Virus record (IMG/VR): IMGVR_UViG_637000265_000001
Direction: 5' to 3' (one strand)
From: a virus
Lineage: Duplodnaviria; Heunggongvirae; Uroviricota; Caudoviricetes
Length of the DNA: 64,000 nucleotides
Below, in pieces: positions 54,601 through 60,600 of the stretch; within the stretch, counting starts at the first letter, position 1; each line of letters opens with the position of its first letter. Position numbers: made by a program.

Positions 54601-57600
54601 TTTTCGAAGAAATAACCAGAATGCACCGTGAGCAAAAGCCAGTAGATGGCCTGACGCTTTTCGATGAACTGGAGCGTAAATCGTTAACGGCTTCTGTTGG
54701 CGGTTTTGCTTATATCGCTGAGATCGCAAAGAACACGCCAAGCGCAGCAAATATCGTTGCCTATGCAATGCAGGTTCGTGAAACCGCAATGGAACGCTAC
54801 GCCATCAACCGCATGACTGAAGCGACGGAATTGCTCTATTCCCGCAACGGAATGACTGCAACGCAGAAGTACGAAGCTATTCAGGCGATTTTCACGCAAC
54901 TGACAGACCATGCAAAAACCGGATCGCGTCGCGGCCTTCGCTCATTTGGTGAGGTCATGGAAGACTGGGTTAGCGACCTTGAGAAGCGATTTGACCCGTC
55001 AGGTGAACAACGAGGAATGAGCACAGGGATCCCATCGCTGGACAGGATGCTGTCACCGAAAGGTCTGGTGAAAGGCTCTCTGTTTGTCATTGGCGCTCGC
55101 CCTAAGATGGGGAAAACGACGCTATACAGCCAGATGGCAATCAACTGCGCAGTGCATGAGAAAAAGCCCGCTCTTATGTTCAGCCTTGAAATGCCAGGTG
55201 ACCAGATACTGGAAAAACTGGTAGGGCAGAAGTCTGGTGTTAACCCGAATATTTTTTACCTTCCGGCGACAAATGACGCTGATGACGGCTATCAGGGTGA
55301 TTACGATGGTGACTTCAACAGGGCGATCGAAACAGCCAATCGCTTGAGTGAAATCGACCTGCTTTACATCGACGACACGCCGGGATTATCTCTGGCTCAA
55401 ATCGTCAGCGAAAGCCGTCGAATCAAGCGAGAAAAAGGATGTGTTGGCATGATTCTGGTCGATTACCTGACACTAATGACCGCTGAGAAGGCCGATCGCA
55501 ACGACCTTGCTTACGGCATGATCACCAAAGGACTGAAGAACCTTGCCAAAGAGCTTGATTGCGTTGTTGTGCTTCTGACACAGCTTAACCGCGCACTGGA
55601 AAGCCGAACCAATAAACGCCCATTACCAAGTGACTCACGAGATACAGGGCAGATTGAACAGGATTGCGATTATTGGGTTGGGATCCATCGGGAAGGTGCT
55701 TTTGATGACAGCGTTCCTCCTGGTGAAACCGAACTAATCCTTCGTCTCAATCGTCATGGCAATACCGGCACGGTGTATTGCATTCAGGCAAATGGCGCTA
55801 TTTATGACACAGACCAACAGTCTGCTGAAATGCGCCGCCGTGAACGCGAGGAACCGCAGTCCAAGAAGAAAGGAGGATTCTGATGACCATCTACATCACT
55901 GAGCTTGTAACAGGCCTGCTGGTAATAGCAGGCCTTTTTATTTGGGGGAGAGGGAAGTCATGAAAAAACTAACCTTTGAAATTCGATCTCCAGCACATCA
56001 GCAAAACGCTATTCACGCAGTACAGCAAATCCTTCCAGACCCAACCAAACCAATCGTAGTAACCATTCAGGAACGCAACCGCAGCTTAGACCAAAATCGG
56101 AAGCTTTGGGCTTGCCTTGGTGACGTCTCTCGTCAGGTTGAATGGCATGGTCGCTGGCTGGATGCAGAAAGCTGGAAGTGTGTGTTTACCGCAGCATTAA
56201 AGCAGCAGGACGTTGTTCCTAACCTTGCCGGGAATGGCTTTGTGGTAATAGGCCAGTCAACCAGCAGGATGCGTGTAAGCGAATTTGCGGAGCTATTAGA
56301 GCTTATACAGGCATTCGGTACAGAGCGTGGCGTTAAGTGGTCAGACGAAGCGCGACTGGCTCTGGAGTGGAAAGCAAGATGGGGAGACAGGGCGGCATGA
56401 GACGACAGCGACGAAGCATCACCGACATAATCTGCGAAAACTGCAAATACCTTCCAACGAAACGCTCCAGAAATAAACGCAAGCCAATCCCAAAAGAATC
56501 TGACGTAAAAACCTTCAACTACACGGCTCACCTGTGGGATATCCGGTGGCTAAGACATCGTGCGAGGAAATGACAATGCTTTTAATTCAACCTGGATTTG
56601 GACTTAGCATCAAAAAAGGCCACATGTTTGGCGAGAAAGAGTCACAACGAAAAATGGTGTCTATCCGGTTGCCATTTATCAGTATTTATTGGCTAAACAG
56701 GGAGGCAACAAATTATTGGTATACATGCGCCAGAGCAGCATTTAACGACCCTGACTGGTTTGTGAAAAACCACCACGCAGTTCGTCAGGCAAAGAGAAAG
56801 GCCAACCTGACATACATAAAGGCGTATCAAAAAGCATGGAAAGAACACCGCGATCGATACCAACAAGACATGGAAAAGCTTGAATCAGAAAACATGGAAT
56901 TAAGACGAAAGCTCGGTGAAGCAAAACGAGACATTGATGCTTACAAGCGACTTTTTAATGGTGAAAGCCATGCTTAGCCCATCCCAATCCATTCAATACC
57001 AGAAAGAAAGCGTCGAGCGGGCTTTAACGTGCGCTAACTGCGGTCAGAAGCTGCATGTGCTGGAAGTTCACGTGTGTGAGCACTGCTGTACAGAACTGAT
57101 GAGCGATCCGAATAGCTCAATGTACGAGGAAGAAGACGATGAATGAGTTAATAAATGGCAATGTCATCAAAATGACAAGCATTGAAATCGCTGAGTTGGT
57201 GGGTAAGCGTCATGACAATGTGAAACGTACCATCGAAACGCTGGCTAAAAATGGTGTTATCCGGCTTCCTCAAATTGAGGATTGTGGAAGAATCAATGGG
57301 TTAGGCTTAAATCAAAGTTTTTGTGTGTATGTATTCGAAGGCGAACAAGGAAAGCGAGACAGTATTGTCGTTGTAGCCCAGTTGTCGCCGGAATTCACCG
57401 CTCGTCTTGTTGACCGTTGGCGAGAGCTTGAAGAATCTGCGGTTAATATCCCAAAAACGCTACCAGAAGCGTTGCGCCTTGCTGCTGACCTTGCTGAGCA
57501 GAAAATGCAACTGGAAAACCAGCTCGCAATTGCCGCACCTAAAGTTGAGTTTGCCGATCGCGTTGGCGAGGCCAGCGGAATTTTGATTGGAAACTTTGCA

Positions 57601-60600
57601 AAGGTTGTCGGTATTGGTCCAAACAAACTGTTTGCGTGGATGCGCGATCACAAAATCCTTATTGCTTCAGGTACCCGGCGCAATGTGCCAATGCAGGAAT
57701 ATATGGATCGCGGCTATTTCACAGTGAAAGAAACAGCGGTCAACACAAATCACGGAATACAGATATCGTTCACCACAAAAATCACCGGGCGTGGTCAACA
57801 GTGGCTGACCAGAAAGCTGCTCGATAACGGAATGCTGAAAGTAACAGGGGAGGCTGCTTAATGGCTAATCTACGCAAAGAAGCACGCGGCAGAGAATGCC
57901 AGGTACGTATTTACGGCGTATGCAATGGTAATCCTGAAACTACAGTTCTGGCACATTACCGGATGGCTGGAATTTGCGGAACGGGAATGAAGCCTGACGA
58001 CATGATCGGCGCATGGGCTTGTAGCGCGTGTCACGATGAAATCGACCGACGCACCCATAATATCGACAACAAAGACGCCAGACTTTACCACCTCGAAGGC
58101 GTAATCAGGACGCAGGCGGTATTGCTGAAGGAGGGGAAGGTTAAGTCATGAATGAATATCGGTTTGTGCTTCCATACCCGCCGTCGGTGAATACCTACTG
58201 GCGAAGACGGGGAAGCCAATATTACATCAGCGATAAAGGTCAGAAATACCGAAAAGACGTTCAGCAAATCATCCGCCAACTTAAGTTAGACATTTTCACC
58301 AAATCACGACTCCGCATCAAAGTCATCGCAGACGTTCCAGACTCCCGCCGCCGCGACCTCGATAACATCCTGAAAGGTTTACTCGACTCCCTTATCCACG
58401 CCGGATTTGCGGAAGACGACGAGCAATTCGATGACATTCGCGTAATTCGTGGTGTGAAAGTACCAGGCGGACGGCTTGGAATAAAAATCACCGAACTGGA
58501 GAACGTATGAACGCCACAATTCAAACGATACCAGAGCTTCTTATCCAGACACGAGGCAATCAGACCGAAGTGGCGAGGATGCTTTCCTGTGCAAGAGGAA
58601 CAGTGCTCAAGTACAACCGAGACAGCAAAGGTGAGCGTCACGTAATAGTTAACGGCGTCCTGATGGTCAAACAGGGCAAGAGGGGTAGACCATGAGACTC
58701 GAAAGTGTAGCTAAATTTCATTCGCCAAAAAGCCCGATGATGAGCGACTCACCACGGGCTACGGCTTCTGACTCTCTTTCCGGTACTGATGTGATGGCTG
58801 CTATGGGGATGGCGCAATCACAAGCCGGATTCGGAATGGCTGCATTCTGTGGTAAGCACGAACTCAGCCAGAACGACAAACAAAAGGCTATCAACTATCT
58901 GATGCAATTTGCACACAAGGTATCGGGGAAATACCGTGGTGTGGCAAAGCTCGAAGGAAATACTAAGGCAAAGGTACTGCAAGTGCTCGCAACATTCGCT
59001 TATGCGGATTATTGCCGTAGTGCCGCGACGCCTGGCGCAAGATGCAGAGATTGTCACGGTACAGGCCGTGCGGTTGATATAGCAAAAACAGAGCAGTGGG
59101 GGAGAGTTGTTGAGAAAGAATGCGGAAGATGCAAAGGTGTCGGCTATTCAAGGATGCCAGCAAGCGCCGCATATCGCGCTGTGACGATGCTAATCCCAAA
59201 TCTTACCCAACCCACCTGGTCACGCACTGTTAAGCCGCTGTATGACGCTCTGGTGGTGCAATGCCACAAAGAAGAGTCAATCGCAGACAACATTTTGAAT
59301 GCGGTCACACGTTAGCAGCATGATTGCCACGGATGGCAACATATTAACGGCATGATATTGACTTTTTGAATAAAGTTGGGTAAATTTGACCCAACGATGG
59401 GTTAATTCGCTCGTTGTGGTAGTGAGATGAAAAGAGGCGGCGCTTACTACCGATTCCGCCTAGTTGGTCACTTCGACGTATCGTCTGGAACTCCAACCAT
59501 CGCAGGCTGAGAGGTCTGCAAAATGCAATCCCGAAACAGTTCGCAGGTAATAGTTAGAGCCTGCATAACGGTTTCGGGATTTTTTATATCTGTGTAACAG
59601 GTAAGAGCATTCTCCCTTATGGGGCTTGGCTTAAATGCACCGAGTGCTCTTTCCGTTGTGCTGAATTAAGCGAATACCGGAAGCAGAACCGGATCAACAA
59701 ATGCGTACAGGCGTCATCGCCGCCCAGCAACAGCACAACCCAAACTGAGCCGTAGCCACTGGCTATCCTGAATTCATCAGTAATAGTTACGCTGCGGCCT
59801 TCTACACATGACCTTCGTGAAAGCGGGTGGCAAGAGGTTGCGCTAACAACCTCCTGCCGTTTTGCCCGTGCATATCGGTCACGAACAAATCTGATTACTA
59901 AACACAGTAGCCTGGATTTGTTCTATCAGTAATCGACCTTATTCCTAATTAAATAGAGCAAATCCCCTTATTGGGGGTAAGACATGAAGATGCCAGAAAA
60001 ACATGACCTGTTAGCCGCCATTCTCGCGGCAAAGGAACAAGGCATCGGGGCAATCCTTGCGTTTGCAATGGCGTACCTTCGCGGCAGATATAATGGCGGT
60101 GCGTTTACAAAAACAGTAATCGACGCAACGATGTGCGCCATTATCGCCTGGTTCATTCGTGACCTTCTCGACTTCGCCGGACTAAGTAGCAATCTCGCTT
60201 ATATAACGAGCGTGTTCATCGGCTACATCGGTACTGACTCGATTGGTTCGCTTATCAAACGCTTCGCTGCTAAAAAAGCCGGAGTAGAAGATGGTGGAAA
60301 TCAATAATCAACGTAAGGCGTTCCTCGATATGCTGGCGTGGTCAGAGGGAACTGATAACGGACGTCAGAAAACCAGAAATCATGGTTATGACGTCATTGT
60401 TGGCGGAGAGCTATTTACCGATTACTCCGATCACCCTCGCAAACTTGTCACGCTAAACCCAAAACTCAAATCAACAGCAGCAGGACGTTACCAGCTTCTT
60501 TCCCGTTGGTGGGATGCCTATCGTAAGCAGCTTGGCCTGAAAGACTTCTCTCCCAAAAGCCAAGACGCTGTTGCGCTGCAGCAGATTAAGGAACGTGGCG

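Follow-up and report, generated by a model that had tools for sequence, protein, structure and literature searches.

Positions 57139-57861 (+ strand) of the IMG/VR virus record IMGVR_UViG_637000265_000001 (Caudoviricetes), a stretch of 64,000 nucleotides (nt) that is called the window below, hold an open reading frame (ORF) of 240 amino acids (aa), and the question raised by this locus is what the encoded protein regulates and through which site. The first-pass annotation of this DNA had described it as a Rha-type regulator with an antirepressor-like domain, placed in a variable slot of the nin region. Judged by sequence comparison, the ORF, which runs from an ATG to a TAA, is the known lambdoid-phage gene roi. 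Within its codons a perfect palindrome was found, the bases of which co-vary across the family with three residues of the predicted recognition helix. Taken as a whole, the observations are best explained, and we consider this explanation probable, by a Roi protein that binds this intragenic operator together with integration host factor (IHF) and limits its own, and probably downstream, transcription.

The protein shares 210 of 241 residues with HK022 Roi (87%, E = 8e-157) and 94% amino acid identity with E212 Roi, and a 100% aa match with identical neighbours could be identified in IMG/VR (locus L003). On the DNA level, a 2.1-kb stretch around the gene is 93-96% identical to the phages E212, Gally, mEpX2, HK629, CUS-3, HK620, HK022 and HK97 (95.9% for the roi region of Gally), in which the gene is annotated as 'roi / DNA-binding protein Roi'; annotations of roi are also found in mEpX1 and in Stx phages. 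The gene was detected in 1109 of 5426 complete E. coli genomes (about 20%), always flanked by NinF and a DUF1364 gene among the matches listed, and it is conserved in hundreds of phages. It is under purifying selection, and together with the conservation this places the ORF far beyond chance, so that the gene call of the first-pass annotation is borne out. Full-length identity, the position in the nin region and an IHF consensus core within the gene assign the window copy to the orthologue group of HK022 roi; it is a common allele of an already known gene. No match to Roi was obtained with the PADLOC defence-system models.

Codons 44-48 of roi (P-Q-I-E-D) read CCTCAA-A-TTGAGG (57268-57280), a sequence that occurs as a single copy in the window. 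For the analysis across the family, homologues were gathered from IMG/VR to below 40% identity and set in codon register. The statistics were calculated for 50 representatives with less than 85% identity in the N-terminal 65 aa, and the analyses of the residue-base code for 51 aligned sequences. A search for shared repeats across five roi alleles revealed no common motif, the dyad being seen once the sequences stood in codon register. In nearly all homologues, a dyad of 6+1+6 nt has its centre at the first base of the codon that aligns with I46, with differing sequences: CCACCA-A-TGGTGG (encoded peptide PPMVE), CCCCCA-A-TGGGGG (PPMGD), CCGCCA-A-TGGCGG (PPMAD), CCTCCA-T-TGGAGG (PPLED), CCACAG-C-CTGTGG (PQPVE), CCTGCA-A-TGCAGG (PAMQD) and CCTGCA-T-TGCAG (PALQH, HK022). 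Nucleotides 130-142 of HK022 roi are CCTGCATTGCAG, adjoined by AATCAATGATTTA. A scan with the protein P0127 mostly returned Roi loci again, because this protein shares the C-terminal half.

The dyad was found at the shared codon position in 42 to 48 of the 50 diverged homologues. At least five of the six complementary pairs are present around the I46 centre in 42 of 50 sequences (84%), compared to 0.55% of the other centres in the same genes, and other offsets gave no signal except for -3 in a subgroup that is one residue shorter. When synonymous codons were resampled with the protein held fixed, 158.6 +/- 6.3 of 300 pairs were expected, whereas 257 were observed. In the MAFFT alignment, 89.7% of the cells are paired versus 71.7% in shuffles, and the covariation score is 0.461 compared to 0.133 in shuffles and 0.05-0.11 for slid partners; for both values, 0 of 500 shuffles reached the observed one. 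Kinship between the sequences was handled in the covariation statistics by redundancy filtering and the wobble-site control only.

The pair formed by columns 17 and 25 occurs as TA (20), AT (12), GC (10), CG (7) and one other type, and the pair 19-23 as CG (34) or AT (16). No G-T pair was present in the six outer pairs of the dyad across the 50 sequences. Column 17 corresponds to the wobble base of Pro44 and its partner, column 25, to the middle base of codon 47, a pairing that protein constraint cannot explain. At codon 45, CCA was found 21 times and CCG three times, which indicates that the innermost A:T pair is selected.

A palindrome in another gene position was seen in the IMG/VR record UViG_3300045988_051161 (L324:301-1002), which combines a different Rha-type N-terminus (KRHDNVLRDI..., GKRHDNVLRDIDFIHSNLSE) with a Roi-like C-terminus. 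Here, codons 35-38 contain the perfect even palindrome CTCAAA-TTTGAG, the CTCAA half-site of which is also that of the KRHDNV-type Roi alleles; the half-site may thus be tied to the helix and not to the PQIE peptide.

The base in column 17 is predicted by residue 27, located in the first turn of helix 25-38, in 51 of 51 sequences (N with T in 21, S with A in 12, D with G in 10 and K with C in 8), and this rule holds in 98 of 99 distinct site/peptide combinations. The mutual information between residue 27 and the Pro44 wobble base is 1.90 bits, equal to the column entropy, compared to 0.09-0.42 for other wobble columns of similar entropy. Residue 34 is an R where position -2 is a C (34 of 34) and another residue where it is an A (17 of 17), and residue 30 (R or Q versus V, I or T) tracks operator position -3. 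Residues 27, 30 and 34 co-vary in this way with the operator positions -4, -3 and -2, respectively. Expressed as dyad pairs, N, S, K and D at residue 27 go with T:A, A:T, C:G and G:C at position 4, and R or non-R at residue 34 with C:G or A:T at position 2. The pairings Asn-A, Lys/Arg-G and Asp-C fit the general preferences of protein-DNA contacts.

When the representatives are compared over the remainder of the protein, the closest sequence falls into another operator class for 22 of 50, so that helix and site are transferred jointly, as a cassette. In the literature searched, no report was found of a family-wide self-encoded dyad, of covariation at synonymous sites or of a residue-base correspondence, although the 1996 Roi paper may describe the HK022 site, and the operator code appears to be undescribed. 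We rate it as slightly better than an even chance that Rha-type regulators in general encode their own operator just after the recognition helix and exchange both as a cassette of ~140 nt, with residues 27, 30 and 34 as a code for positions 4, 3 and 2, and that in lambdoid roi this forms an IHF-coupled intragenic checkpoint upstream of Q.

Differences between the Roi alleles are limited to aa 21-66. The ratio of non-synonymous to synonymous polymorphism (pN/pS) in this segment is 0.54-0.75, compared to 0.09-0.17 in the remaining 174 codons (C-terminal). The diverged cassette also contains an IHF core consensus (WATCAANNNNTTR), one of three cores in the window. In the alleles of HK022, E212 and the Stx1 phage, the core was found at the same nucleotide position and in the same codons (A-ending codon, ATC, AAT, nnn, TTA, GG), and the roi allele of the Stx2 phage is without it. 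In the wider family, 9 of 51 representatives carry the core, which always starts +17 nt from the dyad centre, across five operator classes. Another perfect IHF core in the window (AATCAATAAGTTA; 40776-40788) adjoins the end of an integrase-like ORF (40786-41946), as expected for an att-site arm.

The two domains noted in the first-pass annotation, a Rha-type N-terminus and an antirepressor-like domain, were both recovered in a domain search above the Pfam thresholds. Phage_pRha (PF09669) passes marginally, with 33.5 bits against a cut-off of 29.9 (aa 12-99), and ANT/KilAC (PF03374) reaches 113.1 bits against 25.3 (aa 126-228). PHROG 63 ('anti-repressor Ant') matches at 7.7e-96. The strict phage_pRha subfamily model of NCBIfam (TIGR02681) gave 17.4 bits, below its cut-off of 45.95, and its match is confined to aa 12-36.

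An AlphaFold2 model of Roi was built from 63 homologues, with a mean predicted local distance difference test (pLDDT) score of 74. The N-terminal winged helix is modelled with a strand (11-13), two helices (14-21 and 25-38), a hairpin (45-67) and further helices (68-101). It is linked via helix 108-144 to a C-terminal unit of two helices (150-157 and 161-170), a hairpin (194-215) and a helix (217-229). A Foldseek search of the model against the PDB gave no significant match. In the model, both domains are DNA-binding winged helices of the MerR/excisionase type, and the so-called antirepressor domain thus looks like a DNA-binding fold. Among the longer database relatives, P0001/P0002 (304 aa) and P0073/P0074 (294 aa), two have N-terminal extensions matching HVO_A0114 and two are NinB-KilAC fusions; these proteins may be read-throughs of the gene call or real fusions.

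For the control by Roi, we infer the following course. The Rha-type N-domain would recognize CCTCAA-A-TTGAGG in roi codons 44-48, probably as a dimer, with helix residues 27, 30 and 34 reading the operator bases that lie 4, 3 and 2 positions away from the centre of the dyad, and IHF would bind beside it at the core consensus that starts 17 nt from this centre. Roi and IHF would form a nucleoprotein complex within the transcribed region, and this complex would limit the transcription of roi, and probably also of ybcO-rusA-ninH-Q, either as a roadblock to elongation or as an attenuator. An intragenic operator with such a roadblock function has been described for C.Kpn2I (PMC6237814). Without IHF, the control would fail and excess or misplaced Roi would poison lytic growth, which is the published Roi/Rha phenotype. 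The conserved KilAC domain would be the likely effector end, with DNA or a host protein as its target. According to the abstract of the 1996 report on HK022, the helix-turn-helix protein Roi is said to bind a site within its own gene that is closely linked to an IHF site; IHF reportedly stabilizes this binding, and mutants growing on IHF-deficient hosts are said to have altered binding. The title of that paper, which names growth inhibition in IHF-deficient hosts, and the description of Roi as a 'DNA-binding protein' are cited in PMC3430580 and PMC4587872 (Clerget & Boccard 1996).

Several points weigh against this course of events. IHF cooperation is, to judge by the sequences, specific to a subgroup, because the core is absent in 42 of the 51 representatives of the wider family. 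The roadblock step is proposed by analogy, and the operator role for this allele is deduced from sequence comparison. Helix and operator are ~50 nt apart and move together, so their association could partly be linkage, a caveat beside which the randomized neighbouring wobble sites have to be set. The palindrome can also fold as an RNA hairpin of 6 bp with a 3-nt loop. In this copy of the prophage, normal expression of roi may be doubtful, because an element of the IS4 family (IS, insertion sequence) separates PR/cro from cII-O-P-nin-roi-Q.

With the dyad in their own codons, kept by selection on synonymous sites, the Roi/Rha-type regulators gain a concrete cis target. If the proposed control is true, it would explain the autoregulation of widespread phage regulators, the importance of IHF and the 30-year-old 'IHF-dependence' phenotype of Roi/Rha. 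It would also add to C.Kpn2I a second and much larger case in which control is exerted from inside a coding sequence, and it would offer naturally orthogonal, re-programmable repressor-operator pairs. In practice, synonymous recoding of such genes would destroy the regulatory site.

The names given to roi point to a different function, namely a true antirepressor, in which KilAC inactivates CI-type repressors of its own phage or of co-resident prophages and thereby induces them. They include the Pfam ANT/KilAC and PHROG 'anti-repressor Ant' labels and the RefSeq name 'phage antirepressor KilAC domain-containing protein', and the domain is common to P1 Ant1 (PMC9043618). We nevertheless regard this function as improbable: roi is situated far inside the PR operon, beyond tR2, and is expressed only after the repressor of the same phage has lost its activity. 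No LexA box (CTGT-N8-ACAG) was found in the 64-kb window, Rfam gave nothing near roi and no antisense RNA, and an immI-type control region or a promoter with a dedicated repressor could not be identified for the gene. The genes of P22 Ant and P1 Ant1/Ant2 belong to immunity regions of their own, where specific repressors or antisense RNAs control them, and roi differs from them in having no dedicated control module. One and the same Roi allele is combined with at least six CI clusters, every one of which is seen with both alleles. This independent assortment is weak evidence against an antirepressor, because broad-spectrum antirepressors exist, and one like P22 Ant would also give a pattern of many CI types. 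In addition, both domains model as DNA-binding winged helices, and the exact function of KilAC is unclear even in named antirepressors (PMC9043618). The antirepressor role in the first-pass annotation hence comes down to a family label, which is not to be read as function, and lysogen incompatibility, which it had likewise listed for Rha genes, does not describe Rha, which by its phenotype inhibits the growth of phage in hosts deficient in IHF (PMC4936722). Possible, if doubtful, is a dual regulator like AriS, in which the N-domain acts on phage genes and KilAC dampens the SOS response of the host (RecA) and so brings the behaviour of the phage into line with other resident elements. The ANT/KilAC domain of Listeria AriS alone inhibits SOS, and AriS-like proteins have AntA/B, Bro-N or pRha N-termini (PMC9043618). 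Between Roi alleles, the KilAC half hardly varies, with the low pN/pS given above, as would be expected for a conserved host target. On the other hand, the evidence for AriS comes from Firmicute phages only, with distant sequences, KilAC models here as a MerR-like DNA-binding fold, and a signal related to SOS was not detected in the window. An AriS-like function would be compatible with the operator model for the N-domain and is plausible as a second role of the conserved C-terminal half.

The palindrome itself could belong to the roi mRNA, as a hairpin that acts on translation, stability or processing, instead of being a DNA operator. The minimum-free-energy fold of 57244-57304 includes UCCUCA-AAU-UGAGGA, and compensatory covariation is also typical of RNA helices. 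However, the six outer pairs contain no G-U in 50 sequences despite all four Watson-Crick types, the selected innermost A:T pair would be impossible across a 1-nt loop, and the z-score of the fold is only -1.42. The identity of the base pair furthermore tracks a residue of the DNA-reading helix, which an RNA structure does not predict, and the abstract of the 1996 work reportedly states that HK022 Roi was shown to bind DNA. On these grounds an RNA element is hardly likely. That roi is a moron, i.e. accessory cargo that occupies a variable slot and does not take part in the regulation of its own phage, would agree with the mosaic nature of the nin region, and lambda, which has no roi, still grows. 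Disruptions of roi by IS629 are tolerated in some Stx2a prophages (PMC4587872). The gene itself has none of the features of a moron. It overlaps with the ninF stop at its ATG (ATGAATGA) and with the ybcO start at its own stop (TAATG), no promoter-like or terminator-like sites were found flanking it, and its GC content matches that of its neighbours (0.43-0.49). Therefore, roi is embedded in the PR operon, as a delayed-early gene of an HK022/HK97-type nin region. A tR2-like terminator was located at 55912-55935, upstream of ninB, and a PR'-like promoter at 59358-59386, after Q. Cargo of this kind is also hard to reconcile with translational coupling to both neighbours, with stable synteny (as in HK022, HK97 and HK620), with strong purifying selection and with a selected cis element embedded in the gene. 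We consider the moron most improbable; it was rejected on the overlaps, the synteny and the base composition, and the 'moron slot' of the first-pass annotation falls with it.

Coming back to an IHF-coupled operator within roi, the closest known system is Roi of HK022 (Clerget & Boccard 1996, J Bacteriol 178:4077). It has the same length, the same domains and the same gene order (ninF-roi-hkbD-rusA-ninH-Q), its IHF core lies at the same nucleotide position and its dyad is centred on the same nucleotide. The difference is in the allele of aa 21-66, with helix SRHSNVKVSIDRL and CCTGCA-T-TGCAG in HK022 and helix KRHDNVKRTIETL and CCTCAA-A-TTGAGG in the window. Unlike HK022 roi, the window roi is located in an imm434-type prophage that is interrupted by IS elements. 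Rha of phi80 and orf201 of P22 (PF09669/TIGR02681) share with Roi the N-terminal winged-helix domain that passes Pfam and the phenotype class, inhibition of phage growth where the host lacks IHF (PMC4936722; for Roi as worded in the title of the 1996 paper). As differences, Roi falls below TIGR02681, has a KilAC C-terminus and is encoded in the nin region and not in the late operon. AriS of the Listeria phage phi10403S (PMC9043618) likewise consists of a variable N-terminal regulator domain and a conserved C-terminal ANT/KilAC domain, but it is distant in sequence, its host is Gram-positive, and SOS inhibition is a feature of AriS. The intragenic-operator roadblock of C.Kpn2I (PMC6237814) is the mechanism proposed for Roi; the protein is from an unrelated family, acts in a restriction-modification context and has no IHF partner described, and for Roi the roadblock is conjectural. 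P22 Ant and P1 Ant1/Ant2 have the database labels in common with Roi, and P1 Ant1 also the KilAC domain.

Table 1. Features of the roi locus, with positions in the window.
Feature	Positions	Strand	Basis or remark
roi coding sequence	57139..57861	+	ORF (240 aa plus stop); identity with HK022/E212 Roi; IMG/VR L003 match
N-terminal Rha-type winged-helix domain (aa 12-99)	57172..57435	+	Pfam PF09669, AlphaFold2 model
Allele-variable cassette (aa 21-66: recognition helix, putative operator, IHF core, wing)	57199..57336	+	Allele divergence, pN/pS
Predicted recognition helix (aa 25-38)	57211..57252	+	AlphaFold2 model; N27, R30 and T34 on one face
Perfect palindrome TCCTCAA-A-TTGAGGA (core 57268-57280)	57267..57281	.	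Codons 43-48; proposed Roi operator
IHF core consensus AATCAATGGGTTA	57291..57303	+	Starts 17 nt downstream of the dyad centre
Long linker helix (aa 108-144)	57460..57570	+	AlphaFold2 model; possible dimerization element, dimerization presumed
C-terminal ANT/KilAC domain (aa 126-228)	57514..57822	+	Modelled as second MerR/excisionase-like winged helix
ninF	56970..57146	+	Pfam NinF 43.7 bits, PHROG 672; stop overlaps roi start
ybcO/hkbD (DUF1364, putative nuclease), 96 aa	57861..58151	+	Pfam YbcO 149.6 bits; start overlaps roi stop
rusA Holliday-junction resolvase	58148..58510	+	Pfam RusA, PHROG 34
Q antiterminator	58692..59315	+	Pfam Antiterm 192 bits; same operon, downstream; a block in roi would affect Q

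The gene order of the window, ninF-roi-ybcO-rusA-ninH-Q, is that of HK022, and in most of 80 IMG/VR loci the order NinB-(orf147)-NinF-Roi-YbcO-RusA-NinH-Q was found (Table 1). The Pfam assignments of the neighbours agree with the location in the nin region that had been given for the gene, at the position that ninG has in lambda. Its placement between NinF and RusA is correct upstream, where ninF adjoins roi; downstream, ybcO intervenes before rusA. The ATG at 56970 is probably the real start of ninF. Between ninB and ninF, a gene of 133 aa with unassigned function (PHROG 1511; 56576-56977) is present in only 21 of 86 roi-bearing loci, and it is this position that really varies in the present nin region; E212 has a DNA methylase gene in the ninB-ninF interval. 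Within the conserved part of roi, a terminator-like hairpin was seen at 57561-57577 (CGTTGGCGAGGCCAGCG followed by GAATTTTGAT). In the region, six such hairpins were counted compared to 4.5 expected by chance, so that this one is within chance.

For the phage Gally in adherent-invasive E. coli (AIEC) LF82 within macrophages, antisense transcripts from Q up to roi have been described (PMC9928086), which suggests regulation at the level of Q. A minus-strand promoter-like site was not found in window positions 55800-60000.

The IS4-family element mentioned above (Nterm_IS4 and DDE_Tnp_1) spans 51681-53106, with the transposase ORF at 51694-53040 on the minus strand. It adjoins the downstream side of nutR (boxA CGCTCTTA, boxB GCCCTGAAAAAGGGC) between cro and cII, and it is flanked by the direct repeat CACCTATGGTGTA (target duplication). 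Its insertion parts PR/cro from the genes downstream, and the prophage is probably crippled. The immunity region at 50662-51613 comprises cI, with HTH_3 and Peptidase_S24 domains, and cro; both genes are presumably of the phage 434 type. Between recT and sieB/N, in the early-left region, lies an IS1 transposase ORF (47893-48396), and positions 19943-20059 hold an ALIL pseudoknot, a frameshift element of the IS3 family (Rfam, 120 bits). Upstream of the integrase, within window positions 1-38000, large ORFs on the + strand appear to form two separate blocks, located at ~6-20 kb and ~22-38 kb, which suggests that the window contains more than one phage-derived region.

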